A stretch of 63,848 nucleotides of DNA, the filler included, from Reclinomonas americana ATCC 50394 (lineage: Eukaryota): the NCBI GenBank assembly GCA_048213135.1. It is 5 parts of 3 records of this genome, joined end to end, with 100 filler letters (N's around TTAATTAATTAA, not from the genome) between each part and the next. Parts side by side here need not be neighbours in the genome. Positions count along the whole stretch, not along the records: positions 1 to 29,486 come from PS015121.1; positions 29,587 to 43,282 come from PS015121.1; 3 more parts are not named here. One strand, given 5' to 3'. The notes beneath the pieces were generated by a model. That model had not been told where the DNA came from, did no database searches, and saw only the letters and a list, made by a program, of their open reading frames with translations. Positions 13,325-40,400 of the stretch are shown piece after piece. Position numbers and translations under genes: made by a program. The first letter of the stretch is position 1. Each line of letters begins with the position of its first letter.

Positions 13325-16300
13325 TCAAGCCACTGGTGCAGCCATCAATCGGCGCAGGCGCTTCTGGTGCTTGGCGGAGAGGTGTGCGGCGTATTGTTCC
13401 AGATTGACGCCCGAGGCTTGCAGGTGCTGGAGGTACTGCGCAGCCTTGCGGCCGGTCTCCTCAGTGATGAACTGCGAGCCCCACACGCTCGAGAAGACTT
13501 CCACCACTCGCGGCAGCGATTCCACGGCGGTGACCACCGGGTGTTGACTGAAGAGAAACAAACATGAGCAAACCAGCAACAACAACAACGACGACAAGAT
13601 GCATGCAACGAAACGATTCAATGAGGCCCATCAGCACGTCGTACACCTTCTTCGCCTCGCCCGGATCGCCCATCACTGGCAGATGGTTGAACCAGTACGA
13701 GAAGGTCTGCATGCGCTCATGTGAGTATCGCGGCACGGTGCACAACAAGAAAACAAAGTAAACGAGTTGGCTCACCTCGTCGGGATTGCTGAACGACTCC
13801 GGGTGGCATGTGAGCGCCCTCCACAGTCCGTTGACGGCGTTGCAGCGTGCGCCCTCAAACCTCCTAATTGAGTTGTGTGCCTCCTTGTCCGACATGCGAA
13901 CAAACAGCGGAATCAATGCTGCACATTCGCACTGTCAGCCCCAGCCACACTCCCCTCCCTGCTCTCGCCACCACTCGTCGTCACGCAACTGTCAGCACAC
14001 TGGCTCCACACCTCTGGCGGCGCGCGCTCCGCAAACAAACTGCAGCCGTACATCGAGGTCTGTCGAATCTCCTCCGAGTCGTCGGTGGTGTACGAGATCA
14101 GAGTCTGCAGAATGAACGGCGCATTCTCCGACACGACCGCGTTGGCGAACTCGATCAGGTCGCAGAACACGCACACGGCGGCCAGGCGGTACGCGTGCAC
14201 CGAGTCGGTCGACTAAAACCAGAGAGAGATATTAGATGCTGTGCAACGCACGCGGCTGATCATCCATTTTCTTCAACGCACCGCCATGGAGCACACGGCC
14301 TGCCAGAAGGTCTCGTAGAAGAACGGCAGGAATGTCTCGTGTGTCTTGATCAGGCCGCCGGTGAATTCCGACCACTGTCCAATGATCATGTTCTCGAACT
14401 CGAACCTGTCCTCAAAGGCATTCTCCTCCGCACCCTCCGCCAACTCCTCCGCCATGTCAGCTGTCGAGAGTGCGACATGAGTCAAACACACAGACACGCA
14501 CGCGCATGCGGCGACACATGCACGAACCCTGCAACTTCTCGCGACGCTCAGAGCTCGCAGTCAGGAGGAAGTTGAGCATCTCCGTCAATNNNNNNNNNNN
14601 NNNNNNNNNNNNNNNNNNNNNNNNNNNNNNNNNNNNNNNNNNNNNNNNNNNNNNNNNNNNNNGTCGTCATCTGCGCCTCCGACAAGAAGTTTCTGCCAGA
14701 CACATCCACCGCCTGATCGAAACCAGTTCAGCACACGATGATCACAAAAAACGAAACAACAGATCCAAACGACAAACCTCACGCATCGAGTCAATGGCAG
14801 TGACTTGTGCCTCGATCTCGTGCTCCTTGGTGATCTCTTGCACAATGTCGTTGAAGAAACGGTTGAAGACGCCAATCACTTGCTGCTGATCGCCGGTGGC
14901 CTCGCGCACAGCCTTCAGCAGCGCCGGCATGAGGGTGCATGCGGTTTGGCGCACCTCTGCAAATCCATAACAATGAGTTTCCATCATGCAGCACACTCTA
15001 CCGAGGACGACGTACCAGGCAAGAAACGGAAGTTCATCAGCGGAATGCACGCCTGCAGCGTCTCCTCAANNNNNNNNNNNNNNNNNNNNTGAACTCGGCG
15101 TAGCCACCCTCCAGCGTTGTCACGTAGTCCAACAGCTTGTCCAGCGCCGCCGCCTTTTCCTGCAGCTCCGTGGTTCGGATCGACACACGACGCACACCTA
15201 CGCGTAACCAAGTGACATTATCAGCCAAAATGCCGTGAGACAATCAATCGCAGAGAGACGGGGGGGCACTCACCGACACCCTTGAACTCGAATGTCATGG
15301 TGCCCCAGCCGTCCTCTGGGTCCGGCTCTGGCTCATCGCCACACGTCACGAGCATCTCGGTCTCGCGGCGAACGCACACCAGCAGGCCCGGGATTACAAA
15401 GCGCAGGTACGGCACAAAGTCCTCCTTGAGCACCGAGCAGAGGCGAGTGTAGGCCTGCTGGATGAGCTCCGTCTCCGGGTCCTCGTACTTCAAGTGAGCG
15501 GCTGGAACATTGACAAATCAGTGACACACTCGTATCGCAAGAAGAAATGTGACTCCCCGCCCACTCACCAACGTCGCCCATCACTTGCATCAAGCCGAGC
15601 GCATCATTGATGCACATCTCCTTGCCGACGGCGCAGCACACCAGCGACATGGCCTCAAAGATGCGGCCGCGCAGCTCCTGATCTCGCACCGTCGTGCACG
15701 ACGCCAACATCGTCTTCAGCACGTGCATCAGCGACTCGTAGTACTGCGTGCAGATAGAGAGGGTGAGGAACCGACTGACTGGGAATGAAACAGATGCATT
15801 CCCAACACACACATACCGGTCCAAAGTGGCCCTCTGAGCACTGCGCCAGCGACGAGATGGACTTGACACCCTCCTCGCGCACCATGTGCACCGGCGACTC
15901 CAGCACCGTCACCAGCTTGGTGAGCAGCGGGTCGACAAACTCATCCAGTGTCGACGTCACAAACTCAGTGTCGGCCAGGTCGAAGAAGTTTTGCACAATC
16001 GACGCAGCCTGCGCCTGCACGCGAACGACCGGATCCTCCATGGTCTGGATCATGCTGTTCAGCAGCGGCTCGTAAAAGTCATGCTGCATCCTCGGTGAAA
16101 TGTCGATGCAGAACTGGCCAATCGTGCCCAGTGCCGCCCACCGCACGTGCATTTGCGGGTCCGACACGCGATCCACAATCAGACTGTGCACGCACGAATG
16201 AGAGACGAGCGCGGAATCATCTCACGCGTGTGACCAAGACGCAACGGAATGAGGTTCTGCAGCTCGCTCTCAAACTCGGCAGTGCACCCCTCGGCAATGA

Positions 16301-17949
16301 CAGTCAAGATCTGCAGCGCCGCAAACCGACCCTTCCAGTCCTCGCTGTAGGCCAGCGTGTTGACGGTGTCGACCACCAGCGGCGCGACAAAGTCGCCGCC
16401 AATCGCAGTGGCCACACGATCCAGAGTCTCCAAGCCAATGTCATACGGCACATCCTCCAGCTCGTCGGTCTCCACCTTGGAGCCCCAGTCCTCCTCTGGC
16501 TCGTAGCTCAACAGCCATTGCACGCCGAGCTCCAAGATGGTCGGCACAAAGTTGGCCATGCCGCGCATGGTCTCGGGGATTTGCTCGCACAGCGTGGTGA
16601 GGAACTCCAGCGACTGCGACTGCAGGTCGAACGGCACACTTGGTGTGCTGGCAAACTGGTAAAACAGGGCGGCGGCGTCGTTGAGGTAGGGCTTGAGGAA
16701 GGCGGGGCGGCTCTCGGCCACCTCGATCACAACCTCGAAGCACTTTTGGGAGGCGTCGTGATCGCCGGCGGTGATGCAAAAGAGGCACGTTTCGAGGCTG
16801 GCAGGCACGAGATCTGGAACATGCGTGTGCGCAGTCAGTGGGCGCTGGCGTCAACTCATGATCACTCACTCCCGACTCTCACTCACCCTGCAGCTTCTTG
16901 CGATCGCTGGCCTTTTTCAGCGTCAACACAAATCCCAGGACGGTGCGAATGGCCTCCACGCGCACATTGATGGCTGAATCGTTCAGACCGGCCACAAAGA
17001 TGGGCTTGATGGCGTCGATGGCCTCCTCAATACCGGCCACGTAGCCGCACACCTCGTTGAAGATCAGCAGCGCAGCCTCGCGCATAATCGGGCGATCGGC
17101 GTGCGCCAACTGGAACAGTGCCGGAAGCAGCTCGGGCCAGCCTGCGTGTGTGTGTGGGTGGTGCAATTAGGTCAACAACCGCGGAGAGCGGGAGGGTGGC
17201 GGGTGGGGGAGAGCACACACCTTCCTCGGCCGAGCAGGCGCACACGGTGCCGATCACGTCGCACACGTTGCGTGCAATGTTCTCCTGCTGCTCCTCATTG
17301 ATGGCCGCCAACAGCTCCGCCTTGAGCGCCAGCTGTGTGTCCTTCTCCAGCGCCGCCCACACATCGGTCTCATCCATCGTAAACACCTTGCGCATCAGCA
17401 CAGCAGCGCCCTGGCGGACCTGTGTACGTACACCCAAGCGAGCCGCTTCAGTGTCAAACTGATCGTCGAGCAAGCGAGCGATGCCCCTCTCGTTCTCGCT
17501 CTCACACACACATGCACACAGAGAGACACGACTTGCGACGGAGAGCGATCGGGGAGCGATTCTGGGGCGCCTCACAGGTCGCTCGTGCACATGCACATGC
17601 ACGAGCACACAGAGCCCAAATCGGAAATACTCTCTCTTCTTCTGCCGCCTCTCACGGAGCGGTGCTCACCTTGGGATCGTTGTGCTGTCTGATGATCTGG
17701 ATGTAGGAAAGCGAGAGGGAGTCGGGGTGCGCGAGTCCACTGGCAAAGTATGCCTCGGCGCGACGGATTTCGGGATTGTCGCCCGAGAGCATGGCGTACA
17801 ACGCATTCTCCACGTCCTCGGGAGTGCACTGGAGGAGGACAGCAGCAGCAGAAGAAGAAGAGGAGGAGAGCAGGGGGTGGGAGTAGGAGTGAGAGGTTTG
17901 ACAATGTTCAGGCTCACACACACGCACAGGCCACGCGAGCGCAAACCAT
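13325..17949 (-). CDS. IPO5: Importin-5 / karyopherin beta-3 (Kap121/Pse1 family)
   Basis: HEAT repeats with family motifs WPELLPALF, ETLDRVATAIGG, WKGRFAAL, VRWAALGTIGQF, LRGRIFEAMSL..AVGKE.F/C..DA, RLCSVLKEDFVPYL, IRTTELQEKA, WFNHLPVMGD..EA; about 14 introns. Confidence 0.93.
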
Positions 17950-18540
17950 TTATGGGGTCTATAACGGATAACAAGGTGGTGGATAACGGCAGAGGGGGAG
18001 TGCGGCGAGCTGGCTGTCGCTCGAACTGTTCTCTCGCAAAACGAGAAGATTTTTCAGGTGCCTTTCCCGCAAAAATGAGGCAAACGCAAACCCCCCACTG
18101 ATGATGCCGGTGATGGCGATGACAGTGGATGTGGGAGGTGTCGATGGAGCGTTCGTACACAAGCAGACAGTCGCCGACCATGAACGAGGCCCAGCGCTGC
18201 AGTCAGCGAAGAGTCGCGATATCGATCGAATTCAAACGTCGAACGCCGAGAACACATGATCACACGTCGATCGGCAAGGGCCGAGTTCGGTGGATTGCCG
18301 TGTCGCGGTAGCACATGCACACACGAGAGACCCGCACTTCGACGTTTATCGACAACTTCACGCACCAAAAAATCAGTCCTCAAACAGAAAAAAACACTGG
18401 TCACCCACGCACCTACTGCGCATATCGCCACAGCATGCCACGACCATTAGCAGCAGCGCTGCAGGCACGACACAACGAGACGTTCATGCTCGCACATGTC
18501 CTGCTCCGAGTATTGGCCGGCGGGCATCCCTGTCGTCGCG

Positions 18541-20688
<2,148 letters not shown>

Positions 20689-20785
20689 CCCCACGTGGCC
20701 CCTGCTTCTTTCCCGTTGTTGTTGTTGTTGTTCGTATGCGTACAATCGTAAAATGTGTACCATTTTTTTGTTGTCCCATTCATTT

Positions 20786-23403
20786 CTATCGCACATTGCC
20801 GTCGGTATCTGGCAATCGGTAATCCGCCAACTGGAACTGATCGTTCTCCTGGTACAGCAGCTCCCGAATCGTCTGCAGCAGCACGGTCTCATTCTCCACC
20901 GTCTCCTCGTCCTCATTGCCCTCTGCGCCCACCGCCAGTCAAATCATGCACAACGACAAGGAAAAAGAAACGGAGAACACCGTCACTCACCCAGCACCAG
21001 CTGCTCACCCCATCCTTGCGCCGCGCCGAGCGCCTCAATGGTCTGCAGCTTGGTCAGGAACACGTACTGCTCGTACAGCAGGCCGTACTCGATGCGACTC
21101 AGTTCACGCTCCTCGTCGAACAGTGCGTCGTGTGTGCGCAGCAGCATTTTCAGTTGCCGTCGTTGCGGGCGTAACCTGTGCGAGCCCTCCATGCCTTGCA
21201 GCTCGCGCAGAATCTCGCGCACAATCTGCCAGATCTTCATGCTCTGGCTGTGGTCGGCCAGCGTGCCGTACTCCTCTTCGTCATCCTCCTGCTCGTCGTG
21301 CTCCTCGCCATCAACCGTCTCGTCGACTTGTCTCCGCGCAGCTGCCAACGCTTGTTGCTGCTGCTGCTGTTGTTGTTGTTGTGCGGCAGGATGCGAAGCG
21401 TATCGCGACGGATCGTACATCTTGGGCGGTGGTGGTGGCGAGGGCATGCCGAACGACGAGTCGGCCACCGAATTCGACGTCGGCATCACAGGCGACAATT
21501 CCTGGTTGCCCATCCACACCGACGTCTTTGGTCGCACCGGTGACAGCGCCTCGTGGCCGGTACGCGGCTTGCGAATGGGTAGGCGCGACTGCGGCAAGGT
21601 GCGTCGAGGCGAGTGATCTGTGCCGGCATTGGCCTTGGGCGATGTCTCATGTGACGCCACCAATTCCTCGTCGCTGGAGGTGGCGTCCACGGCTTGTGGG
21701 GGTGGCGGTGGCCGCCGTGGCGGCTCCCGCCCGAGAGGCTTTTGCGGGAGTGGCGGAGCCATGGTTGTGGATGCTGCAGGCTGCGGCGGGGCCGGAGGTG
21801 GGCGATGCGGTTGTGCCGATGGTCGAATCGCGGCCGTCGGTGGCGGCGCCAACGCAGCGGCGGCGGCATTCGCGGTGGTGGTCAGTGGCAGAGAATCCGC
21901 AGCCCCAGCCGGGCGAGTGGACAACTCGCGAAACAGCGCCTCGTAGTCGGTGTGCGAGCGGTCCTGTCGTCCATTAAAGTTGTTGGTCGTTGCGGTGGTG
22001 GTCGTAGTGGTGGTGGCAGCGGTGCTGACGCCAGCGGTAGCTGGCTGAACAGTGCGTTGCTGTTGCAAGGCTGAGAGTGACACGGTAAAGGTGGGCGGGT
22101 TCGGTTGCGGCACCGGCTTGGGCATCGGTTGTGCTTGCGCCTGGGCCGGTGGCAGATCGGCATCGTCGGGCTCGCGCAGTTCTGTGGCGCGGTACAAGGC
22201 CAGCACTCTGTCGCGCACGAGCCCCATGTGAGTGAAAACATGCATATGCATCTACATACGCGCAAGCGCTGATGAAACTTCTCAATGTCCAGCTGCTGAG
22301 CTGTACCCTGCGTCCACGCCGGCTCGTCGGCCCTGGGAACCCGCCATTCGCCCGCCTCCGCCGCGGCAGCATTCGCCTGTGCCGACCCGCCACCGCGTCG
22401 CGCCGCTCCCGTGGTCAGAATACGCGTGGTGGTGTTGCGCTGCGTCGGAGGCGGCGCGACTTGCGGCGCCGGTCGCGAGTAAAAGCTCATGGGATCCGGC
22501 TGTGGCTGCTGCGGCTGTTGGTGCTGCTGGTGGTGCTGCATGGCGGCAACCGATGCCGACGGCATTCCACGACGCGCATTCTGCAACTGCATGCGCGCCA
22601 CCAGATCGCTGGCAGTGACCACATTATCGCCCGTCTCCACGCGCATGTTGTAGTACGGTTGTTGCTGCTGCTGTTGCGACGACGACGGTCTGGGCGCCGC
22701 TGCGGCCGCCGCCGCCCCAGCAGCACTGGCCGCTCCCACGGCCACCGACGGCCGGCCCAACTGCGACAGCGTCTCCTGTCGTGCCGACATCTCCTGTCGC
22801 ACTTGCTCCACTGTAGGCGCCGCCGGAGCCTCATGCCGCAGCGTGCGCAGCGGTCGCAAATCACGCTCGAGCTCCGCAAATCGCGAATGCATGTCCATGA
22901 GATGTGCACTGTGAGCCGCGTAATGAGCCTCCGGCAGCAGCAGCACAAACACGACTCCCTGCTCTCTCTCTCTCTCTCTCTCTCACGCACTCGGCATTGG
23001 TCGATCGCGTCACTGCTGCAGCACTCGCAGACGATGTGTACGTGCTTCCTCCTCCGCCTCCCCCGACAGCTCCCATGGCCGCCATCGACCCTGCGACTGC
23101 AGCAGTGGCGCGCACAGAGCCCTGGTCGCGCACATCACGCACAAGACGAGTGGCCAGCTGCGGAACACCCCACGTCTCATTCGCCTGCGAGCTTGTGAGT
23201 GAAGAGGGCCCACTCTCTCTTTCTCTTTCTCTCTCACACAACACACACACACACACCGAGTCTGTCGTTGTCACATGCGCAGCCAGTCGCTCACGAAACG
23301 CCTGCAGTCGCTTCTGTGTAACATGAACGCGCGCGCGTGTGTGTGAGTGCGAGTGTGCCAGTGGTGTGTGAGCGCGCGTAAAGTGGACCTGAAAATCAGT
23401 CAT
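20786..23403 (-). CDS. Large low-complexity protein with EB1-like C-terminal (EBH) domain
   Basis: C-terminus LLYEQYVFLTKLQTIEAL...VLLQTIRELLYQENDQFQL resembles EB1 LEKERDFYFxKLRxIE...xxxI.xILYATxxGF; Pro/Gln/Thr-rich middle; start MTDFQ|KRLQAF at 23403. Confidence 0.6.
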
Positions 23404-23563
23404 TTGCTGTTATGCCGACTGCACCCGCCGCCGCCGCCGCCCACTTGAAGCAACACAGCCAGACAGCCGATCAACGAGCCGACGACGACCTGACCGCAGC
23501 GACGACTTTGATCGCCATTTCGCGCACCTGGCGCCGCCATTTCAGTTGTCTCCTCCTTTGTCG

Positions 23564-26500
23564 ATGTCAGTGAGTGCGGTTCACGAGCAGGTTCTGCGCG
23601 GGCTGGAGAGTGCAGTGAGCGGGGCAGAAGGCGACATCGACTTGCATGTGTTGCATGAGTGTGTGCGACGATGCAAGAACTTGGTGGTCGGCAATCGGAA
23701 GCAGAAGGAGGCGTTGAGTGCGCGCGCGCTGCCACTGTTGTTGAGTGTGGTGGGGAGGTTGAGCGCCGACGTGCATGTGAGGTCAGTGGTGGGGGTGGGG
23801 GCGCACAAGTGAATCTGTGAATGAGTGTGATTGAGAGATATAGAGTGTGGGTGCGTGCGTGAGAGAGAGCATGTGTGTGAGTGTGTGAGAGAGTGGGTAC
23901 TGTGTGCGCGCGTGTGCGTGTGCGCGAGTGGGTGTGACGACATGTCGTTCCAATTCCTCATTGTCGTCGACACAGTCTCGTGGAAGACATTGTGGTGCAG
24001 GCATCGACCTGCCTCGGCAGCTTTGCTTGCAGTTTCGCACGCTCTCCCTCACCCTCTTCCGCCCTCCCTCCCGCTTGTCGCTCACACGTGTGATCGATTG
24101 CAGCGCCGCAGCCGGTCGACGCTTGCATTCCTGAGGATGCGGTGGATGTGCTGCTGCAGCTGCTGGTGATGCCGGAGGCGTCGAGCAAGGTGATTGAGTC
24201 GGACACGCGCACGCTGAAGTTGTGGTACCAGCATGTGTCGGCGCTGACGATTGCGCCGTTTGTGCGAGTTGCGTGAGGGCGAGGATTGTGCTCAGTGGAG
24301 ACGATGGGCTGGCTGATTGTGTGTGTGTGTGTGGCGCAGCATCCCGATGCAGTGCTGCGATTGACTGAGTTGTTGGAGTCGACGCGCGCGCACAGTGGGA
24401 GCGATCAGACGCAGCAGAATGTGGCGGCGTTGGTGAGCCGAGTGGTGTCGTTGCCGGAGTCGAGTGTCGTGTTTGACTCGCAGCGTCTGTTTGATGCCGT
24501 GCTGCGTCTGGTGTACTCAGAGTCGCCCAACGTTGCGTGTTGTTTTCCCCCTTTACATTTCTCTTTCTCTGTGTGTCGCCCGCATTCTCATCTCGCTCCG
24601 TTGCCACAGCTGCAAGAGGCTGGACTCGGCACGCTCGCCAGTCTGATCGCACGTGGTGATGCCAGCAGCACGCAGCAGCTGCTGCAGTCGTCGGCGGTGC
24701 TACGTGAGCACGTGACGGTGGCGCGAGTGAGCGATCGCGACGCTGGACCGTCGTCATCGTCATCGTCTTCGTCGGTGCCGTCGGCGGCGAGTGCCGTCGC
24801 CAGTCTGCAGGACGCTCTCGGTTCACTCGTGAAGAGCAAGCAACCGCGTACACGCAGTCTGGCGTGCGCATGGTGCGTGTGCTATGAGAGCAGAGGTGCA
24901 CTGGTGCGCGGTGATGCACTCACACCACACTCGCCCGATCGATCAGTTTGGCCAGCATGCGACCGCGACCGTCACCCGCGGCGCTGATGTTTGGCGTGCT
25001 GCCGGCACTGATGAAGCTCCTCTCCGATCAGGTGCCGTTCATCGAAGAAATACCCTTTATTCTGAGTTGCGTACGTGGCACCCGAGTCGTCACGCTCCGG
25101 CATCGTCGCCACTCACTGTCGCCCACAACCAGGCACGCTGGTGCGATCGGACGTGGAGTTGCAGAGGGCGGCGTTGAATGGTGATGTGATTGCCAAGGTG
25201 GCACCGTTGCTGGAGAATCCGTTGCCGCGCGCGCGTGAAGGCGTGCTGCGCCTGCTGGCCGCACTCTCGGCCGAACGTGAGGAGGGTCGCAAGGCCGTGA
25301 TCGACGCGCAGTTGGTTCCGCGCGTGGTGGCGGCGTTGAGTGACACCTCGTCGGCACGAGTGCGCGCCGCTGCCTGCGACTGCTCTCGGTGTCTGTCGCG
25401 GTCCACCAAGTACCTACGCACCACGCTTGTACAGGAGGGCATTGTGGCGCCACTGATGACGGTGAGTGCTGCGATGGGGAGAGGGGTGAAGAGGGGAGAG
25501 AGCGCTGAGTGTGTGTGCATATCTGCCAGCTTCTGGATGACGCCGACACCGAGGTTCGCAACTTGTGCCTGGCGGCGCTGTGCAATCTGGTGGTCGACTT
25601 TTCGCCGTTGAAGACCACGTTTGTGGATAATGGTGGCGTGGCGCGTGTGGCGGTGCTCCTGGAGGTTTGTGTACGACTTTGATGACACACGAGGTGATGG
25701 ATCTCGCTCACTTCGTGACATGCAGCGATCACAGCCGAGTGCTGTGCGTGAGCACGCTGTGTGGCTGTTGAAGAATCTGCTGTTCCACGCCGGCGACGCC
25801 GTCAAGGAGAACGTGTTGTCGCACGTGGGCTTTGATCACATTTTCAGGTTCATCTCTCATGTTTGGGTCACCATCCCACCGCACATGCCCTCAATCTCGT
25901 GCTCGCTTGTAGATTGTTGGAGGATAGCGACAAGCGAGTGGCGATTCAAGCCATCAAGCTGGTGCGCAACTTGATGTCGCCCGATGCGGCCAACATTGCC
26001 GCCGTGCTGGAGGCCGAGAATGGTGAACTGTTTGGCTTGCTGAAGCGGATCGCGCGGTCGGCGGTGGGCAGAGCAAATCGCAGTGTGACCTCTGATGTAG
26101 AGATGCAAGACGCGTCGGCGGCGTCGAGCATGGAGGTGGAGCAGCGTGGCGGCGAGGCGGAGGAGGACGATGAGGAGGAGGAAGATGACGGAGAGGGAGG
26201 AAGAGGAATGGCTGTGTCGCCACAGGGCGGCAGCAGCAGCAGTGCTGCGGTGGGCACGGCAACGTCGCCTGTGGTCGCCAGTGACGGCAGTCTGCGTGAA
26301 GAGCTGCTGTCGCAGGTGCTCTTCTGCTTCACCAATATTGCGTCGGGCAGTCAGCGACAAAAGGACGTGCTCTGCAACGATGCCGAGTGTGTGCGCATTC
26401 TATTATCTGCACTGGTGAGTAGGCGAGAGCGAATAGAGATGGGTGTGTGTGTGTGCGTGAAGAGCCGAACTGACCGCAGTTTGCTGTGCGCAGAAGCACA

Positions 26501-26847
26501 CAAACGCCACCGTCGCCGAGCCGGCTCTGTGGACCATTATCAACCTCGTTCTGGAACGGACCGCCGGACACCGCGAGCGAGCCGTGCGCCTCTTGGACGC
26601 CGGTATCCACGAGGCACTCGTCGATCTCACCTCCGGAACCAGCAGCGCCGCAGCTCCGATCGCTTCGCCCGGGGCTCCGGCCTCGTCACCCGGGGCTCCG
26701 ACTGTTGCAGCAGCAGCCTCCGCCGCCGCCGGTGGAAGCACTCGAGATCCGCAAGTGGCCAGCCGCGCCAAGTTTGCACTCGACGAGCTCAACAGGGCGC
26801 TGAGCGAGCGACAGTCGCGATCGTCGTCTGAAAATGTAGTCATTTGA
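23564..26847 (+). CDS. ARMC8: Armadillo repeat-containing protein 8 (GID/CTLH E3 ligase subunit, Gid5/Vid28-like)
   Basis: CKNLVVGNRKQKE, VRAAACDCSRCLSRSTKYLRT, AALCNLVVDFSPLK, AVWLLKNL, QAIKLVRNL, QVLFCFTNIASG, LWTIINL; 10 introns. Confidence 0.88.
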
Positions 26848-27041
26848 AAATTGCTTGTCCTCGCAATCAATCGTTGCAAACCTTGTGGTGAGCGCAGTGA
26901 CTTGATCGAATGATGTTCCTTGCTGATCTCTCTGTCACGCGCACAGACTCGACTCAGTCGCTTGTGACTGGAGAAGGGGGAAGACAAGCAACGCGCACAC
27001 ACCACTCTGTGTGTGCGCGCGCGTGTGTGACTGACAAGAGA

Positions 27042-28510
27042 ATGTCACACCAAAACAAAGTCATTGGTGACTACATAGTCACACCACAAAAAATGTGAGT
27101 TTGTGTGCCGCATAGAGAGAGGGGGGCGATGACAACAGTGCGAGAGAGTAACGCGATGTGTTTGTGTGTGTGTGACAGTGGATCTGGATCGTTTGCGATT
27201 GTGTGGCGAGGTCGACATCGGGAAACCCTTCGCGATGTCGCTGTCAAGGTTATCTCCAATGATAAGCTCTCACCAAAGAGCAGGGAAAACCTGGCACAGG
27301 TGAGAGAGAGAGAGAAGAGAGAGACGAAGTGAGAGAGAGAGAGTGCGCGCGTTGACTTTTATGTAACGCTTTTGTTTGTGCTGTGTGTTTGTGTGCGTAG
27401 GAGATCAAGATCTGCCAGGAGCTGAGGCACCCGAACATCGTGGGTTTGGAGTACTCGCAGGTGAGAGCGAAGAGAGCGTGGAGCGCGCGCGTGTGCGTGT
27501 GTGTGAGTAGTGATCACCCACCGACTGACACTTGCCCGACTCTCTCTCTCTCTTTCGCACGCGCGTGCTCACTCGCTCATGTCTCACACGCGCACACACG
27601 TAGAGAGAAAGGGGAGGCGGAAGAAAGAGAGAAAGAGAGAGAGTGTGTGTGAGCAGGAGCGGTTACTCTTGATTACGCGGGAAATTCTCTTTCCCCCGGC
27701 CGGGCACGCCCGTACTCCGTACATCTATGTGGTTGCTGTCAGAGACATTGCGGGGTGTGGTGCAGACAGATGCGCACGCCATCGCCCCGTGTGTGTGAGG
27801 TATTCGTTGTGCGTCGTTCTCAGTTCTCAAATTAGACCTCGCATCCGCGCTCACGCACACTCACACTCCGGGCCCGCTCGCTTCTCTCGCATTCGCGATC
27901 GTTCGTGTGCATCGCAATGAGAGCATCACTTGTGTGTCTCTGTGTGTCTCTCTGTGTCTCTCTCTGCGTGTTCTATTCCCTTCAGTCTCTGCACCAGATG
28001 CCACGCGTCGCTGTCATATTTTACACAAGGATTTTCTGCACCATACTGACCTATGCGATCGCGTGTGTGTGTGTCGTGTTGCTTGCACAGACGGGCCGAG
28101 CGCATGTGTATTTGTTTATGGAGTTCTGTGCCGGCGGAGACATGTCGCATTTCTTGCGACAGCATGGACCCCTCCCGGAACATATCGCGCAGAACTTTTT
28201 GCGACAGATTGGTGCGTGCGAATCTTATTGCGTGTGTTGCCACGTAGTGTGAGGCACCTCCACACTGTAACACACGCGCACACCCTATTTGCCTCTCATT
28301 CCCTGCGGCGTTCACTGACGTGTGTGCGCAGCACGCGGACTGGCATTCCTGTACACGCGGAACATTGTGCACCGCGACCTGAAGCCGCAGAATCTGCTGC
28401 TCAGCGAGGCCTCGTACCAAGCCGTGATCAAGATCGCCGACTTTGGATTCGCCAAATCGTTTGACGATGACTCGATGATGACCACCATCTGCGGCACCCC
28501 GCTCTACATG
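27042..28510 (+). CDS. ATG1: ATG1/ULK serine/threonine kinase, N-terminal half
   Basis: [71 protein letters not shown]. Confidence 0.85.
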
Positions 28511-28601
28511 GTACGTTGTGAAACGAGGGTTGCATGAACCAAGTGACATTTGACGGACGCGCGCATGCTGTTTGCGCTTCCNNNNNNNNNNNNNNNNNNN
28601 N

Positions 28602-29479
28602 CCACCGCCACCTGAACCGACAGCCAGCGTGGTCATGGATGTCGTCGTAGTTCGTGTTGCTGCTGCCGTGGTCGTTGTGGTTGTTGCATTTCTCGAAGCA
28701 TCCGCCTGCGGAGTGGCCGCCGTGATGGTGGGCCCGTCGACGCCTCGTGCCTGTCCGAGTCGGTCGTCGACCTCCACCGTCTGGTACATGGAGCCAGTGG
28801 CGGACGCAGAGAGCTCTGTTGGCGGCGCAACAGAGAGAGGGAGAGGGAGAGGGACAGAAGAAGGAAGAGGGGCAACAACAGCTACTTGAATGGGCGTGAC
28901 TGAGGGCGGGGGTAGGGGGGCGCGAGAAGCAGCAGCACCACCGCTGCTGCTCCCACCACTCGACGAACCCTCGTTTGTGGTCGTCGATGAGCCAGTGGTG
29001 GTGGTGTTCGAGGCCACCTCCGTGTCGGTGCCCATCTCGCCCTCCGAGCCGTGCATCGAGTCGCGAGACATGCGCTCCACCGACGACGACACGCCAACCT
29101 CCGACGACGCCGCATCAGCATCAACGTCGGTCGCCTCGCGTACGAATGGATGCGACAGGAACTCCTCGTGGTTCATGCGGCGTGCAGGATCGCGCTGCAA
29201 GAGGCCCTCCAGCAGACTCCAACATTCATCGGAGATGGTCTGCGGCGATGTCGGTCTCCTCAGCTCGGTGCGATTGATGTTATCCAGCAGGTTCATCGGC
29301 GTGTTGCCACGGTATGGTTGACTGGTGGGAGAGCGTGTGAGCGAGCAAGAATCAAAAAGAAATGATAAAAATCTGACACGGATTCGCAACGTCTTGGTCA
29401 GCATCTCGTAGAGAATGACGCCGACGCTCCACAAATCCGCCTTGGCGTCATAATTCTTCATCGACAAGATCTCCGGGGC
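28602..29479 (-). CDS. ATG1: ATG1/ULK kinase, continuation on the opposite strand (inverted contig)
   Basis: Starts after a TGCAG acceptor with APEILSMKNYDAKADLWSVGVILYEML...LLQRDPARRM..EEFLSHPF, then an S/T/P-rich linker. Confidence 0.85.
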
Positions 29480-29530
29480 CTGCACANNNNNNNNNNNNNN
29501 NNNNNNNNNNNNNNNNNNNNNNNNNNNNNN

Positions 29531-29542
29531 TTAATTAATTAA
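29531..29542. other. Artificial scaffold linker TTAATTAATTAA
   Basis: All-frame stop linker flanked by Ns. Confidence 0.95.
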
Positions 29543-29840
29543 NNNNNNNNNNNNNNNNNNNNNNNNNNNNNNNNNNNNNNNNNNNNCGCGCAGAGAGAGT
29601 GAGAGAGGAGTGGACGACACACAATAGTGCTTTTGTTTGTAAGAACAACAGGCGAAGAAGAGAGCGTGAGAGCAGTCGTTGTAGCGTACCTCTGCTGTGG
29701 ACGACTGTCATACTCTCTCTCTCTCTCTCTCTCTCTCGCTCTCTCCCTTCTCCCTGCGTGTGTCTATGTGCGACATGTCGTCCCGTCGTTGTCGTTTGCT
29801 CATCTTGTTGTCATCATCGCCCGTCAACGACGACGGAGTA

Positions 29841-32546
29841 GGCCTCACAACGGGACATTGATCGCAAGTTTCGCCGTCTGCTCCAGCAGCTGCATCCCGA
29901 TCGATTTCCGCATGAGACAGCTGAGGAGCGCGAGAAACGCACCAAGGAGTACCAGGAGGTGTTGTCGGCTGCAGAGGTGAGGGTGTGCTGGAGGAGTCTG
30001 CGTCACAGTTCATTTCCTCACGTGTCATCCGTCTCGCTCAGATTCTGCGCGACCCACAAAAACGCCTGCGGTACGACTACTTTGGACTGGTGGGCGTCAA
30101 CTGGCAGGTGGCCACTCGTGTAAAGACGAAAGAAGAGGTGCTTTGTGTCGATTCCCCATTGTCGGTGGCGATGCTGGTACTCACACCACATCTCGGTCCG
30201 CCGCAGATGCGTGAAGAATTTGTAAAGGAGACGATGAAGAAGCGGCGACAGGAGAGCAAGCGAGCGCTGAATGCGCGTGGCACTGTGCGAGTTGCGTTCC
30301 TCTTTGCCACTATGTGCATCGTTTGTGATCCTCACTCTTCTGTTGTTGAGCAGGCGATCATTGATATTGAGTGCCTGTACGATCCATACGACCTCGACAA
30401 TCCCAAATGGTACCCAGACGTGGATGGCGTTGACGTGAACCAGAGCTTTGAGGTGAGCGCTGTCGTTTCGTGGCTGGCTGGCTGGATGCCGATCATCTTT
30501 TGACTCAACAAACAACAACGCAGCACCGCATTGGTGAGCACGGTCGGCTGAAGGTGCACGGCGCGGCAGCCATGATTGAGACCCGTGGATGGGGCCGCGG
30601 CGGTGTCGAGTACTCGCACTACTTTCCGTCGGGCATAGAGGCAGGAGTTGCGTTGTTGTTATTTTTTACATGGTGAAGCTAGTGGCGTGTCTCTCTCCCT
30701 CTCTCATCATCCATTGGCAATCGTCGCAGGTGTCACTGCGTGTGGGCACTGCGCGCGTCTTCAATCGTGTTGGCACGTGGGTACGAGTCCCACTCAGCAC
30801 CAAGGCGTTGCGTCCCCGATCAGCTCCTCTTTCCCCTCTTCCTGACACTCAACTGTTTGTGTGTGTGTGTGTGCTGTCCAACGAGTAGCACCGGCACGGT
30901 CGAGCTGTCATACAATCAGTTGTTTGGCTTTGGTGTCGGCCTCGGGGCGCGACACTCTGTCGGTTCTCACACGCAGGTTGGTCTCGTTTTCGCACGCACA
31001 CACACACACACACATCGTACCACCACCTTCTCACGCGCACCGCTCCGTGCAGACGCACATCGACGTGCTGTTGGGGAAACTGCACAGCTTCCACGTCGGC
31101 GCCGTCCATCGATTCGGCGACAAGCACGTCGTGTCGTTGTCGGGCAAGGTGGCGTGTTGTATGATTGCTCGTCACCATTGTCATCTTGCCGCCCTGCATT
31201 CTGACAATCCGACACAGACGGGCAGCATGGGCAGTGAGATCCGCACCAAGTACGTGTACCAGGCCTCGGAGCACGAAATGGTCGACGGACAGGTGTGTCT
31301 CTCACTCGCACACACTCTCTGCCGCCTCTCTCGCATGGCGCACACTCACACTGGCATCACCAGGTGGCCTGGCTCTTTGGCAAAGGCCCCGAGGCGAGAG
31401 TCGGCGGATCCCGTGCTCTCGGCTTGCGGTCTTCAATCGGCGCCGATGTGCACATTGGTGCTGGGCGTGACACGGTATTGCGCACATAGTTGCGTTTCAC
31501 CCGCTGTCTCCCTGTTTTTGTTGCGTCCAACAGCCCTTGTAACACTTGTTTGGTAGCTTGGAGCGCGGTTCGCAGACGCTCGAGGTCGATTCCAAGGTGG
31601 CGTCGGCAAACAAATTCTCTTGGTACAGAACTGGTCTGGCGGTGGGTCTTCCGCTCCTGCTCTACACCTGCGCGAACCAGCTCTTCTTCAGACCTGTAGA
31701 AAAGATCCGAGCGGATGAGTTGCGTCCAGTGGTCGGCCAGTGCGACGCCTGAGCTCACCCTCTCACGCTGTTTTCGATGAGCTGCAGGAGTGATGCCGCG
31801 CACGATGACTCGTTTGTGGAGCGTGTGGCTGCTGCTCGGGAACGCGCCGCCGGCGCGGTCGATGACATGCGTGTAGAATATGAGCGAATAGTGCTGGAGC
31901 AGGATCGAAGAGAGCAATGTTGCGTGCATGGACGACGCACGCACCAACGTGCACTGTCACAACCTGTCTCATTCGAGGCTTTGTTGTCTGTCGATGCGCA
32001 GACGACCAGAATGGTGGCTTGGTGATCCTGGTGGCCAACTACGGCGAAGCACGCGCTGTCCGAGACGAAGAGGATGAAGAAGGTGCAGTGAGCGCATTGT
32101 TGTTGTTGTTGTTTTCACGACCAGAAGGAGGTGAGCTGATGATGATGTGCCCGGGCCGACTGCAGAGCCGTCCTCCTCGGACACTGTGCCTCCTATCTGG
32201 TGTGTCACCATCCCGCTGCAAATCATGGTCGACGACGGCATGATCATTATCCGTGCGTCTGTCTTTGTCTGTCTCCGAGTGCTCCCCACCTGCGTGGTGC
32301 ACTAATCTGTGATCTGCTGCAGCCGGCGGTCGCACCAAGAGCGAACTCCCTGGTTTCTTTGACCCGGCGCCCGGAAAGCGCAAGCTTCTCCGCGTACTCT
32401 ACCGCCACCACGGTCAAAGACACGAGGTCATTGTTGGTGACTTGGACCAACTGAGATTGCCCGATCGGAGTTGCGTACGTCGTTGTGTGGACGATGGAAC
32501 AAAGCGACTGACAGCTTGTTGTGCCACAGTGCACCTGGTGACGTGA
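29841..32546 (+). CDS. DNAJC11: DnaJ homolog subfamily C member 11 (5' end missing or unresolved)
   Basis: J domain ASQRDIDRKFRRLLQQLHPD...ILRDPQKRLRYDYFG; later GGLVILVANYG, VTIPLQIMVDDG, KSELPGFFDPAPGKRKLLRVLYRH (DUF3395-type C-terminus). Confidence 0.9.
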
Positions 32547-32649: not shown

Positions 32650-35600
32650 TCAGTAGTTGCCTGGTGGTGCACTGCTGCCGAATTTGTTGACAAGCAGCTG
32701 TTGCAAGGGGTTCACCGGTACCACTGCTGCTGGTGCTGCTGTAGCGGTTGTGCCGGCAGCTCCGTCGTCGTCCGGACCAGCCAGCCACTGGCGCCATCGT
32801 GGTGACGCCGATTCCGGCGACAGTGAGCGACCTGGCTCCTCCTCAGCCTCTGCTGGTGGTGACGCCGCGCGAGGTGGTGGTGGTGGTGATGACGACTCTA
32901 CTCGAGCGGACTGCCCGAGGAGTGACGAAAGGCGCAAGGGCACTACAGGCACCGACGACGCACCGTCGTCTTGGCGACCGCCATTTGCACGCTGCTGCTG
33001 CGGGCTGGAGCTCACGCGTCGAGGTGATGAAGACGTCGCCGCAGATGCTGGTCGCGAAACCTTGCCTCGCCCTCCGCCGCCGCCGCCGCCACCGCCAGTT
33101 CCCCGTCGACTGATATCACCGCGAGGTGGCGGGTTCGTGTCACGCACTTGTGAACCGCGCCCCGACGCCGGTCGTCCTCGCTTTCCTCCACCACCGCCAA
33201 CCCCTCTTCCACGAGCGGTGCCACGTGCCGAGCTTGTACCACCACCACCACCACCAGTAGCAGTGCCACGGCGCGGTGGTGAAGAAGGCGCGGCTTGAGG
33301 TGGTGTGGGCGTGCGTTGATGTTCGGGCGCAGGTTGTGGACCACCACCACCAATGCCACTGGCGGGTGGCAAGTTGGTCATCACAGGGAAGCCAAACAGA
33401 CTTCCCGGAGGCAACTGTCGCACGGCAAGCGCTGTGGCGAACGGGGACGCCAGGCGACGCACATCAACTGGCGACTCAATGGACTTGAGTGACGGATTAC
33501 TGCGCAGTGCTCGCATGTCGAGTGTTGGTGGTGTTGCGACACGCGAGGCGAGTCGCGTCGGTGATGTGGGCGACGACTGCCGCGGAAGCTCGGGCTGGAC
33601 CTCGCGTTCACGCACTGGAGACGTTGCCGGCGACGTTCCAGTGGACACGAACACAGGTCGCACGACGGTCGGCGCTGGCGGTGCCGTTGTCGCACCTAGC
33701 GGTCCCAGCTGCAATGACATGCTGGCAAACGGTGACGCCGACGTTGGCAGCGATGTTGGCGTGACCGCGGTTGCGACAGATGACGAAGAGGTGGGACTGT
33801 TGCTCCCAAGTCCAGCAACGCCAACGGGCCCCGCAAAAGGCCGCTCAAATCGCACGGCACCATACGGCCACCCTGCCGGTTGTGCTGCTGGTGCTGCTGC
33901 TGCTTGTGGTGCCGATGTTGGCGATGATCTGGGCGACGACGCCGTTGCCACACGATCACGGGCACCACCGTCGTCGCTGACGGGGGGTGCCTCGGAGAAA
34001 CGAACACGAGGAACACTGTTTGCACGCGGCGGTTCTGGCACCTGTCGACTGGAACCCGATCGCGGCACTGCATTGTGATATCCCAACGAAAAATGAGCAC
34101 AACCAAGAAGCTGTGAGTTACGTGCATGTGCCCGCTTGCGCGCACCTTGCACGGGCGACACAACAGGAGCTCGATCACTCGCCAGCGGCGAAACCCCCGC
34201 ATGCACCACTGGCGACGGCATCACTCTGCGTGGCAACGAGGCAATGCGCGTGATGACTTGCATTTGCAAAAGCATCTGGAGCTGCATTCGTCGGCGAGCG
34301 AGCTCCTCGTGCGCCGCAGGCATCCGATCCAGCACAGACTAGCACATTAACACGTGCGTGTACATAAGTCGCACGCACTACGAAAACGCGTCTGCCATGC
34401 CGACGCACCTTCATCCAAGAGACGTACTGCAGGATGGCCACGACCGCCGGACGGTGCGTGCTCATCAACTGGATCAGATTGTTCATGTCGACCAGCGTAA
34501 CCGGTGAGGCACTCTCCAACTCCTGCACCGGCTGCACACGGCCATACACACGCGAAACGCGCTCCAACACTGCGCGAGTACCCTCGATGAGCGAGGGTGG
34601 CGGCACACCCGGCTCGAGAAGAGTGCCAACTGCGTTGTTGGCGCGGCCGAGCTGCAACTGTGCGACTGTGTGTGGAGGGGAGATATCAGTTGAATGGCCT
34701 GGCGTCCCTCTTGCACAACAACACTCTCTCGTCCCCCTTCCGCGCGCGCAACTGCCAAGCGGCCTGAACGGAAGCAGTTGCATAATGACTGGTGCGGTAA
34801 GGAGCTGCGCCTCGTGGGCCGGCGGTAGTTCGGCACCGGCGAGATTGTCGCGCACGACCGACGTGACCCAGCGAGCAGGATTGTTGGTCCCCGACGACGC
34901 AGTGTCGGGCAACATGGTCGACGGGTTCTCTCGCAGCAGACGGTGCAGGAGGTACACACTGGAGGTGCGAATGACCAGCAGATCGGAGACTTCTGGCGGC
35001 CGCGGCAACTCGGCCTGCTTCAGACGCTCGTTCTTCTCAATCTGTACGCACGGGGTGGGTTAGGCACGAAATGGCTTGGCGTCCGCGCGCGGCACACGAA
35101 CCCGGTGCGCGAAATCAATGAGCTGCGACAGGCGGGAGTGCAACAGGCGTTCGACCACCGGCGTCAACGACACGGACTTGTCGGAGCCAGGCGGTTGCAC
35201 GGACAATTCGGTGGAACCCGAAGTCACTGTGGCCACGATCGAGGCCAGCACCGACAAATTCCACTGCCGCAAGAAGATCTCGCGCACCGACACCTGGGCG
35301 TTGGCTTGCATTGTGTTGGTAAGGAAGAGAGGATTGACCACCTGCAGATGGAACACTCGTCAGTCAGCCGTTCACACCGCCACACGCACGCAAAACACAG
35401 GCGACGTGCCTCGCCCTCAGCGTCGTCAAAAATGTGCAGCGGGTCGACAAGGAAAGGATTCGTGAGACTGGTGAACGAGTGCGTTGGCCGCCTCACAGCC
35501 TCGGCGAATTCACCTGGCGCATTGTGGAGATGAGGGAACACGAATGTGACCTTCACAAACAGTGTGCACGCAACGATCGGATAGCAGACGACGCCCGACA

Positions 35601-38600
35601 AACAACGAAGGATCCTCCGACAGAAGCATGGACGACAGCGACGACTTCAACAGCACTCCAAACAGCAGCCGCAGCAGGCACTGCGTGCCGACGGTCGGTC
35701 CCACATCTCCGCTTGTCGATTCGCTGCCGGCCTGTGCTGCAGTCGATCCGCCAGCAGCGGCGCTGACAGCCTGGCAGGCGGCAATCACCACCGACGGGAA
35801 CGCACGAATGGAGGAATCCTTTTTCACAAGAAGAGAAGCGTTGGATAGCGGTGACAATAAAAGAAGGGGTCAAAGACTGGCAGAACCAACCATGAGCAGC
35901 TGATCAATGAGCCGGCGACTGAGCGACTCCAAGTTGTCCATCCAGCCCTCGGACACCAAGTCGAACGGGGTGGTCGGTAGTTCACGAACAACCGAGTCCC
36001 ACACAGTGTGACGTAGGAACCAGTTGAGATCTTCCCTCTGCCGCACTTGGTTGAGAACAAGAAGAAGAAGAAGAAGTGGGAGAGGAGAAAACAACAGGTG
36101 TGCACTATCTACCTTGGAAATCTCGCGCAGACAGTGCATGAGCACCTCCGACTGCGGTTGTCGCAGAGCTGGATCCGGAGACGCGCGAAGACTGGCCAAT
36201 AACGCCGGAACGCGCACGTCCAATAGGAGGCGATGAATAAAGGCGCACAGCAACCGTTCGTTTGTCGAGTAGTACGCAAAGAGATCAGTGACCTGTGATG
36301 CGGGTGAGTTCTTGCGCCACACACACTGTTCCACGCCGCCACGCACCACAGCCTCGGCAAACTCTGCCGCATGGTCCTCGTTCACCCGCAATGCCAGTGC
36401 CGAGAGTACTGTCGGTGCACGCTGCAAGTGGTACAGCAACTGGCCGTAGGCCTCTCGTGACTGCAGTACTCGCGCGATGTTAGGAAACAGCGAATTCGTG
36501 AGCATGTACACAAGGGAGGCCGAGGACGCAACTGCACCAAACAGGTCGGGAAGTGGGGACGGTGGATCCAGCTGCGCGCACAGCAAATGTTAGGAGCCAA
36601 GTGACATGATGGGAACTGCACAATAAAGTCATCTGTGCACCATGTGGCGAAGCTGGTCCTCGTCGTGCATCATATCCACACTGGACACGCGATCGCGCAG
36701 TCCGCGGCACTCAAGCAAGTGCTGATGTGTGATGCTGCGAGGGCGACGCGCATGAGCATCGAATGACCAGGAAAAACGCAACACACACACGCAAGCTCAC
36801 CGATTGGCCTCCAGCAGTGACTCCTGGAGGCGCGTCAACTCGGCGGCGGAGGGGAAGCCGAGCACCGTATTCATCTCCACCGACAGGCCGCAGCTGTCGA
36901 CCACACCAAGAAAGCGCGACTTGACGTGCTGGAATTTGTCGACCAGGGACGATTCAGGAGGCGGTTCAGCACGAACACTGTGACATCACCGCAGTGAGTG
37001 ACAGGTGTGTTTTCCAAAACACCAATCGTTTCTCACCCCTCGACTGGCGTCGGCGGCTCAAAGTACACTGTGGGAGCCGACATCCATGGCGCCTCGGCGC
37101 GGCTATCAGTCGCGAAAGCATCGACAGCGGCCATGTCACCAGCGACGGAGGCGCCGAAGGTGTCACTCGCGGCGACACTGTGCAATCGTTTCTTGTGCTC
37201 TTTGCTGGATCCCTGGGCGCCGAGCTTGCGAATTCGCCGTACAGGCGGGTCATCGCCGGCAGCCTCCTCCTTTGTACCCTGTTCGACGCGATGTCAAATG
37301 ACACCCGCAGTGTGCAAGCACCAACCGAGGCCACTGACCTCGCCAGGTGGCGCCGATCCGAGAGACACGGAAATGTGAGGTGCGGCGGCGCCCGAACCGC
37401 CAGCAGACAGCGTATCATCTGTGGTAGGATGAGCGAAAATAACAAGGACCACTCACTGACAAGACTGACTGACCCGACGAGCCCGAATCAAAGTCATCGT
37501 CTTCCGGCACGCGTACCAAATCGGCTACAGCTGCGAATGTCACGGGCGGAGCATCGGTTGGGATCGACTCCCGTGGGGTCGATGGTGCGCTAGAGCCGCG
37601 TGAGCGGGATCTGGGCGGCAGACGGTGCGTGCGCCGAGGTGTGAACTCGCCATCCCCCGGGTCCGGAGATGTAGAATCGTTGCCGTCATCCGCTTGCTGC
37701 AGGGGCACACCGACGCATCAGGTGTTGGCAGTGTACACGCGTGGCGGGAGAGTGCGTGGCGGGAGAGTGCGTGGCACGCTACGCAACTGCATCGGCACTG
37801 CTGCGTCGGAATCGCCACGTCGAGGAGGACGGGGTGCGTGGTGAGAGACCTGCACGAGGACGCTTGTGCCGCGGCTCATCCACGTCGGACAAATCGACCG
37901 CGCCCTCTCCATGCGTCTCTCCACGCGCATGCGTATCGCTGCTGCCGAGAAACAAAGCACGAAAACAAACAGTTTGTCGTCGGTATTCGCCACCACAGAA
38001 AGGAGTGAGTGAGTGCGCAACGTTGGTGCCACGGTCGCCGACTGCCCACTGGGCGGCGCCGTCGACTGGACGGTGTGTGTGACTGCGGTCGTCGATGTGA
38101 CCAGCGTCGGAGGAGGTGGTGGTGGCGGCGGCGAAGGCTCCACAGCGGCAAGCTGTGCAAATCGCTTCTCGAATTTCTTCATCTGCTCAACCATGGCCCG
38201 CAGACCGGGAATGGTGTCGGCCGCTTGCGCTGCGCGCAACAATGGAGGAAAACACGTCAACAGTTTGCATAAAAGAGGCACCGAGCACGACGATGCTATT
38301 CTACCTTCTGGAGCAGTCGACCTGTGCAACAAAACCTGCAAGTAAGTCTCGGATTGGGGAAAAACAGACGCGGCTGGCTGGAGAACGTAATAACTCGGGT
38401 GAGTTCTGCAACGAGCCGGCCGTGCGGAATACGCGTGCGTCGGGCGACAGATTCAGGGACATGGACGGTGGGTCGTCGGCCGACGGCTCCTTGTTACGTG
38501 TTTTCCACTGCGCGCACACACGCACGCAATGCATTGGTCGGCCGGGATCGGTTTGGCTCGGCTTGCCGAGGTGTTCCTGCGCAGGCACGCAGTCAGCCAC

Positions 38601-40341: not shown

Positions 40342-40400
<59 letters not shown>

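Follow-up and report, generated by a model that had tools for sequence, protein, structure and literature searches.

Coupling of the last exon base to a one-base displacement of the 5' splice site signal in predicted introns of Reclinomonas americana

At rare human 5' splice sites (donors), U1 small nuclear RNA (snRNA) pairs one base downstream of its usual register (Roca and Krainer 2009, as described in PMC4856993 and PMC11162779); a printed example is ACA/GUCAAGUAU (Tan et al. 2016, PMC4856993), where a slash here and below marks the cut. According to the survey of registers in PMC4856993, all validated non-canonical U1 registers together account for ~1.5% of human 5' splice sites. For U6, the discussion of STAT3 in PMC11162779 proposes a non-canonical register, and does so for this human tandem donor only. 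Independently of register, donors were divided into an exon-strong class (AG//GU) leaning on U5 and an intron-strong class (NN//GURAG) leaning on U6, as outlined in PMC11732430, and an older 'seesaw' relation, in which -1G and +5G compensate for each other, is mentioned in PMC8283771. How the exact cut site is chosen, given flexible recognition by U1, U5 and U6, is a matter of ongoing debate, and knowledge of non-canonical registers is confined to rare human sites that were examined gene by gene. Here, we analyzed a stretch of 63,848 nucleotides (nt; filler included) from Reclinomonas americana ATCC 50394 (assembly GCA_048213135.1), referred to as the window, in which about a third of the predicted introns start with a donor signal that lies one base deeper in the intron, and in which the last exon base (position -1) is tightly coupled to the form of the donor.

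The composition of the window is that of eukaryotic nuclear DNA, with a G+C content of ~57%, closely spaced genes and short introns. Introns were predicted with our own dynamic-programming gene finder. Exon scores came from a 3-periodic Markov model for which Pfam-supported frames had served as training set; intron scores combined the length, the acceptor, the branch motif and positions +3 to +9 of the intron. The two donor models, normal and shifted, carried the same weight, and the last exon base was left out of the score. A motif-free first parse gave noisy boundaries and a signal-only intron scan an unusable 758 candidates; neither was used. The final run yielded 16 gene models with 148 introns, all of which are predicted from gene models without transcript support. 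Donors with G at +5 (GTGCGT, GTGAGT, GTGTGT etc.) were assigned as normal, those with T at +3, C at +5 and G at +6 (GTT[G/T]CG) as shifted, and the rest as other. The better-supported set (n = 120) comprises introns of 45-250 nt with a YAG acceptor and at least 30 nt in both flanking exons.

A preliminary description of this DNA had proposed that exons ending in A, C or T (non-G) take the shifted donor. A contingency test of the -1 base against register bore this out for the 120 better-supported introns of the window, and the association was likewise found in the full and in the most strictly filtered set.
All introns (n = 148): after G, 65 normal, 4 shifted and 14 other; after non-G, 14 normal, 38 shifted and 13 other; Fisher p = 2e-15.
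Better-supported introns (n = 120): after G, 60 normal, 4 shifted and 10 other; after non-G, 5 normal, 32 shifted and 9 other; Fisher p = 9e-17.
Strictest filter (n = 83): after G, 43 normal, 2 shifted and 6 other; after non-G, 3 normal, 22 shifted and 7 other; Fisher p = 7e-13.

After relocation of one dynein donor (49368, see below), the normal/shifted counts of the better-supported set were 61/4 after G versus 4/32 after non-G. Both parts of the window displayed the coupling: normal/shifted counts were 17/1 after G versus 2/16 after non-G among the 43 introns within positions 13614-32476 (p = 6e-7), and 43/3 versus 3/16 among the 77 introns beyond them (p = 1e-9). It was also present in phases 0, 1 and 2 separately and in most genes. 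The rule that links the last exon base to the register is real and strong, and we regard it as confirmed and, if anything, as more pronounced than first described. Shifted donors started 36 of the 120 introns, or 39 when GTTGAGT variants were counted.

The coupling is driven by a near-obligate G before normal donors (60/65) that is missing at shifted ones (4/36). Copies of the motifs that are not donors were preceded by G in ~12% of cases for either type (normal-type 84/717, shifted-type 3/26); thus, the coupling is a property of donors and not of local sequence. The heptamer GTTGCGT occurs 40 times on both strands versus 14.6 in shuffled sequence, where 40 copies were never reached, and 33 of the 40 copies are used as donors in the models. 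The preceding base was A in 17, C in 11, T in 10 and G in 2 copies, with A clearly enriched. The 2/40 copies after G are by themselves only mildly low (p = 0.08), as GTT is preceded by G in just 15% of cases window-wide.

The individual genes largely repeated this pattern. In the importin-5-like gene (IPO5), for which it had been claimed that non-G donors are shifted and G donors normal, our own models gave the same result (3/3 and 8/8, respectively). In the armadillo-repeat gene, all five non-G donors were shifted, four in the strict sense and one as the variant GTTGAGT, and four of five G donors were normal, the fifth falling into the other class. In the gene at 28890-32546, eight shifted donors were found among the non-G donors, and 32253 was the sole reliable normal exception. 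The donors of these genes and the further shifted donors of our models are as follows.
13608..13614, minus strand: shifted donor c/GTTTCGT of IPO5 (own gene model).
13983..13989, minus strand: shifted donor a/GTTGCGT of IPO5 (own gene model).
16239..16245, minus strand: shifted donor c/GTTGCGT of IPO5, after the exon with Pfam importin repeats (own gene model, Pfam).
14281..17220, minus strand: normal donors of IPO5, all after G, at 17220, 16886, 15816, 15568, 15273, 15015, 14527 and 14281.
Within 23740..25072, plus strand: non-G donors of the armadillo-repeat gene at 23740 (t/GTTGAGT), 24032 (a/GTTTCGC), 24268 (a/GTTGCGT), 24532 (c/GTTGCGT) and 25066 (a/GTTGCGT) (own models).
24873..26420, plus strand: donors of the armadillo-repeat gene after G, normal at 24873, 25462, 25665 and 26415, other at 25848 (g/GTTCAT).
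Gene at 28890-32546, plus strand (donors within 30291..32476): shifted donors after non-G at 30291, 30465, 30647, 30807, 31489, 31719, 31919 and 32470 (own models), all GTTGCGT except 30465 (GTTTCGT); 32470 is of low confidence (17-nt last exon).
Gene at 801-5580, minus strand (donors within 1139..4958): shifted donors after non-G at 4958, 4437, 3657, 3340 (low confidence), 2699, 1431 (GTTGCGC) and 1145 (low confidence).
8745..9720, plus strand: shifted donors t/GTTGCGT at 8745 and 9714 (own models).
Within 34746..40667, minus strand: shifted donors after non-G at 40667 (GTTACGT), 39221, 38642, 37787 (low confidence), 36532, 35574 and 34752 (GTTGCGC).
Within 52846..56504 (Kelch-gene region), plus strand: shifted donors after non-G at 52846, 55371 (low confidence), 55473 (low confidence) and 56225, and the variant t/GTTGAGT at 56498 (own models).

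The two donor classes differed in how strictly their intron side is defined. Normal donors were diverse, with 20 hexamers among 65 (GTGCGT 13, GTGTGT 7, GTGAGT 7); shifted donors were near-invariant (GTTGCGT 27/36, GTTTCGT 3/36). G occupied position -1 in 92% of the normal and 11% of the shifted donors, and the overall -1 compositions of the two classes differed accordingly (p = 2e-14). When, instead, position -1 of shifted donors (A 15, C 9, G 4, T 8) was compared with position -2 of normal donors (A 22, C 15, G 13, T 15), the compositions were alike (p = 0.68), and A was enriched over the coding background at both (p = 7e-4 and 2e-3, respectively). Past the GT, a preference for G was found at +7 in normal (30/65) and at +8 in shifted donors (15/36). 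The match between -1 and -2 together with the move from +7 to +8 indicates that the whole signal, from the exon-side A through the base after the GT, is offset by one base from the cut. The whole donor signal is displaced by one base, exon side included, and the earlier proposal that the two donor forms act as one extended signal in two registers agrees with preferences that move on both sides.

Apart from the donor, introns of both classes were alike in branch motifs, branch distance, length, pyrimidine content and G+C (all p > 0.4). The branch motifs CTCAC, CTCAT, CTGAC and CTGAT were common to both, and the median branch-to-acceptor distances were 18 nt (normal) and 19 nt (shifted). A minor (U12-type) intron class was considered and rejected, since there was no distinct branch motif and no relevant difference in these distances. 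An all-against-all comparison of the 148 introns gave only microsatellite matches plus one 16-base match, and a transposon-derived intron family (introners) was rejected on that basis. The shared branch features and the lack of intron family similarity thus rule out both a second spliceosome type and a transposon-derived family. In most introns, a branch motif CT[C/G]A[C/T] lies ~18 nt before the acceptor, with CTCAC alone in 38/101; it is unusually uniform for an intron-rich genome (comparison table in PMC2483917). The introns also do not match those of Plasmodiophora brassicae, for which PMC2483917 gives a mean length of 55.7 nt and a weak branch motif.

The position of the cut was assessed by comparison with homologous proteins at five shifted junctions.
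19588..19594, plus strand: shifted donor t/GTTTCGT of the LCAT-like gene, intron 19588-19655 (numbering of 4x90_A).
19849..19855, plus strand: shifted donor c/GTTGCGT of the LCAT-family gene, intron 19849-19910, phase 1 (numbering of 4x90_A).
42140..42146, plus strand: shifted variant a/GTTGAGT of the glutamate dehydrogenase gene, intron 42140-42934 (795 nt; numbering of 6dqg_A).
47073..47079, minus strand: shifted donor a/GTTGCGT of the dynein heavy chain gene, intron 47007-47079 (homologue alignment).
51598..51604, minus strand: shifted donor g/GTTGCGT of the dynein heavy chain gene, intron 51533-51604 (alignment).

The spliced dynein prediction was aligned to four homologues, which spanned 12 of 13 junctions, 11 of them gap-free against the closest homologues. 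The junction at 47079 was gap-free versus 4/4 homologues; that at 51604 was gap-free with P0001 and P0002 and had one gap with P0010, P0014 not spanning it. At 19588, residues 128 and 129 of 4x90_A are contiguous across the junction, and at 19849 the numbering of 4x90_A runs from 190 through one split codon to 192. For the intron 42140-42934, exon residue 82 corresponds to residue 108 of 6dqg_A and residue 2 of the next exon to residue 111. This contiguous numbering indicates that a 39-nt mini-exon placed there by the model is spurious. Judged by these homologues, cleavage is before the GT at all five junctions, as the preliminary description had assumed for shifted donors in general. The dynein alignment also removed an apparent exception to the rule: the model donor at 49368, normal after non-G, adds five residues without counterpart in any of the four homologues, so that the true donor is g/GTTCGT at 49383, 15 nt upstream, and the exception a model error.
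49378..49383, minus strand: corrected donor g/GTTCGT of the dynein heavy chain gene.

We consider it somewhat probable that one recognition block is read in two registers and cut at its GT, with U1 as the likeliest reader and U6 accommodating the shift. The introns would share one long signal at their start, approximately A-G-[G or T]-T-[G/T]-[C]-G-T, that is recognised as a block, and the cut would fall at the GT inside it. With G as the third letter, the GT would start one base later and the conserved G would be the last exon base, giving the normal form G/GTNNGT; with T as the third letter, the GT would start at the conserved G itself and the remaining signal would lie one base deeper, giving the shifted form N/GTTGCGT. 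Exons ending in G would go with the normal form, and those ending in A, C or T with the shifted one. What the donors show is that -1 base and register are coupled, where the cut lies and that the signal as a whole is displaced; the RNA that reads the signal is what we infer, and it would most readily be the 5' end of U1 snRNA, paired one base downstream as at the rare human sites, whereupon U6 would make room for an additional base. The further-reaching proposal, that the spliceosome routinely works in two registers with both U1 and U6 one base deeper in about a third of the introns and with the last exon base deciding between them, is put forward tentatively and is rather doubtful at present.

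Several points weigh against the block model and against a simple role of U1 in it. The predicted pairing with the standard U1 5' end (Tan et al. 2016) was -7.1 kcal/mol for G/GUGCGU and -1.8 kcal/mol for A/GUUGCGU; the latter lay outside the full shifted register and was weaker than that of A/GUGCGU (-2.9 kcal/mol). For comparison, the human shifted oligonucleotide ACA/GUCAAGUAU was predicted to fold in the downstream register at -6.5 kcal/mol. Because A/GUUGCGU pairs so weakly, the simple U1 idea could hold only with an altered 5' end of U1 or with a different reader; standard U1 pairing would, by these calculations, leave unexplained why GUUGCGU is the best-conserved donor. Nor does a stability threshold of one U1 predict loose normal and near-invariant shifted donors. 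On simple pairing grounds, a perfect GTGCGT after a non-G exon end would be expected to function as well as the shifted form, yet this combination is about ten times rarer. As the GT at +5/+6 is also the pairing site of U6 (described for human donors in PMC11162779), a displaced or bulged pairing would be required of U6 too, a point on which the preliminary description did not touch. Finally, the introns are all predicted, and two model errors surfaced where homology allowed checking. The shifted signal may be read by a U1 with an altered 5' end, by another U1-like RNA or predominantly by U6.

A variant U1-like snRNA or a protein might read GUUGCGU while standard U1 reads G/GUNNGU, and the coupling would then arise because the last exon base is touched by the standard reader only. 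Such a division of labour would suit shifted donors that are near-invariant over seven bases next to loose normal ones, the poor pairing of GUUGCGU with the standard U1 5' end and the almost diagnostic use of the heptamer. We nevertheless regard two readers as unlikely, since the exon-side A and the downstream G preferences move by exactly one base, as expected if one and the same reader switches to a second register, and since branch sites and other intron features are alike in both classes; that Rfam found no snRNA in the window adds weak evidence, given its 64 kb. The shifted motif could also be understood as a normal donor with an extra U bulged at +2/+3, with U1 and U6 otherwise in their usual register. 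GTTGCGT and GTTTCGT do equal GTGCGT or GTTCGT plus one T, i.e. one extra base between +2 and +5, and human sites that resemble such an insertion use bulge registers, as described in PMC11162779 and PMC4856993. A bulge predicts, however, that G at -1 is kept as in normal donors, and this is contradicted by its loss and by the -2 A preference that sits at -1. The displaced exon-side preference and the missing G argue for a shift rather than a bulge, for which we see quite a low probability.

The pattern might instead be the form that the two known 5' splice site classes take here, with an intron-strong class in which U6 pairs one base further in and U1 does not decide. An exon-end G that is anti-correlated with a strict intron motif (60/4 versus 5/32) is what the outline of these classes in PMC11732430 would lead one to expect; the +5/+6 GT is the pairing site of U6, and a non-canonical U6 register has its precedent in the proposal for STAT3 (PMC11162779). 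But the known classes keep one register, whereas G here is at +5 or +6 and the exon-side preference moves, which a contact of U5 with the true exon end would not bring about; in addition, the STAT3 register, as presented in PMC11162779, goes in the opposite direction. This explanation is improbable in our view. Least credible of all, to the point of being very improbable, is an origin in the gene models, in chance or in copied introns with GTTGCGT that inserted after non-G bases. The introns are indeed predictions with two errors found among them, and the two shifted donors after G have their first 16 bases in common; but the -1 base was unscored, p is ~1e-16, two parts of the window replicated the coupling, non-donor copies had no such link, the misplaced dynein junction moved towards the rule when corrected, and the comparison of the introns with each other left microsatellites and a single 16-base match.

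The reading of one signal block in two registers has its closest relative in the shifted human U1 register. There as here, the cut is at the GU, the signal lies one base downstream and the first intron G replaces the last exon G, and the printed example ACA/GUCAAGUAU also has a non-G exon end. Unlike the rare human sites, shifted donors here start 36/120 introns (39 with GTTGAGT) under a near-deterministic rule; the motif is GCGU instead of AAGU, and the role of U1 would have to be carried over by analogy. With the two donor classes and the seesaw, the present donors have in common that exon-end G and intron-side strength offset each other within one spliceosome; they differ in that the known classes share a register, and the second class here is displaced by one base together with its exon-side preference. 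Bulge and asymmetric-loop U1 registers (Roca 2012, Tan 2016; summarised in PMC4856993) also look like a consensus donor plus one inserted base, but the exon-side G is not kept here (11% versus 92%). The STAT3 case shares a GU that pairs with U6 positions 42/41 one base off +5/+6; it concerns a single gene and an upstream displacement (+4/+5), in contrast to the downstream one (+6/+7) in a third of the introns here. The idea of a register shift is thus not new in kind; in our analysis it is the scale and the near-deterministic -1 rule that set these introns apart from the human cases. Among the papers listed, judged by their titles and the openings of their abstracts, none treated GTTGCGT or GUUGCGU as a donor motif, which leaves room for a mention within a genome paper.

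Some donors deviate from the rule or are of doubtful assignment. Among the unshifted exceptions listed earlier, 32253, 43005 and 55167 were recovered; 1300, 22990, 27095 and 43252 were absent from our models, and the choice between 12356 and 12368 was ambiguous.
32253..32258, plus strand: normal donor after C, c/GTGCGT, intron 32253-32322 (own models).
43005..43010, plus strand: normal donor after A, a/GTGCGT, glutamate dehydrogenase, intron 43005-43079 (gene model alone).
55167..55172, plus strand: normal donor after C, c/GTACGT, intron 55167-55232 (own models).
19396..19402, plus strand: shifted donor after G, g/GTTGCGT, intron 19396-19465 (own gene model).
32998..33060, minus strand: doubtful shifted donor after G, g/GTTTCGC, inside a long open frame.
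56870..56932, minus strand: doubtful shifted donor after G, g/GTTGCGA, a 63-nt in-frame 'intron' within the WD40 open frame.

The donors at 19396 and 51604 are the sole two well-supported shifted donors after G, and the first 16 bases of their introns (GTTGCGTTTTTTTCCC) are identical (19396-19411, plus strand; 51589-51604, minus strand) in unrelated genes. The third exon of the glutamate dehydrogenase gene, which follows the 43005 intron, gave no dehydrogenase match in a PDB search. Further, g/GTGAGT at 43160..43165 (plus strand) is likely, judging from the frame, to be the true donor in place of the model's a/GTGTGT at 43164. A minority of predicted donors, among them 12 of the 19 'other' ones, carry A at +5, for example those at 20429 (+), 25848 (+), 22278 (-), 39618 (-) and 36640 (-); such donors read GTAAAT, GTTCAT, GTTTCA, GTATCA or GTGCAC and are accompanied by good branch sites and acceptors. 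A second GTTGCGT lies at 31520 (+), 31 nt into the 31489 intron, and another at 36782 (-), 18 nt in frame beyond the predicted donor g/GTGAGC at 36800; both tandem arrangements may represent alternative 5' splice sites. Four normal donors after G (3256, 1984 and 35890 on the minus strand, 20225 on the plus strand) carry GTTGGT, which equals the shifted heptamer without its C and could have been left by an interconversion of normal and shifted donors.

The genes of the window were assigned by Pfam on long open frames.
~13.3-17.4 kilobases (kb), minus strand: importin-5-like gene (IPO5).
19.2-20.7 kb, plus strand: LCAT-family gene.
23.5-26.8 kb, plus strand: armadillo-repeat gene.
41.3-43.3 kb, plus strand: glutamate dehydrogenase gene.
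45.2-52.2 kb, minus strand: dynein heavy chain gene.
From 52.7 kb onward, plus strand: Kelch gene.
56.7-59.9 kb, minus strand: long WD40 gene with an open frame of 1053 amino acids.

At the four joins (29487-29586, 43283-43382, 52140-52239 and 59909-60008), 44 N, TTAATTAATTAA and another 44 N form a six-frame stop linker, so that the window consists of contigs strung together; joins interrupt the genes for glutamate dehydrogenase, dynein and the WD40 protein. The single 8-kb model in the region 34746..40667 (minus strand) probably merges several genes. A long (CA)n followed by a (GA)n microsatellite at 19013-19168 lies within an intron of the LCAT-family gene and continues into an assembly gap. 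The best homologue of the dynein heavy chain (45240-52181, minus strand) among 1.84 billion representative proteins was 48% identical, and a metagenome scan with a dynein exon returned nine loci of 39-49% identity, too distant for a comparison of orthologous introns. Going by these low identities, sampling of the source lineage seems to be very poor. In a protein atlas, the dynein exon matched only generic dynein clusters; the piece 43643-45238 had no match to the dynein homologues, and searches for homologous proteins with one exon each of the IPO5 and glutamate dehydrogenase genes, including longer lengths, gave no matches. Rfam applied to the whole window found no RNA gene, hence no snRNA or U1 gene in ~64 kb.

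In this sequence, gene finders trained on a single donor model would set one exon end in three at the wrong position, and the GTTGCGT heptamer by itself flags donors with high specificity (33/40 copies). If it holds genome-wide, the rule would be of clear interest to splicing specialists, as hundreds to thousands of introns would then serve as natural test cases in which the roles of U1 and U6 become directly testable. Should the spliceosome of this organism indeed work in two registers, the near-invariant GCGU core would point to an alteration of the otherwise almost universal U1 5' end, and R. americana would offer a naturally occurring case of 5' splice sites whose recognition is uncoupled from their cleavage across the genome.

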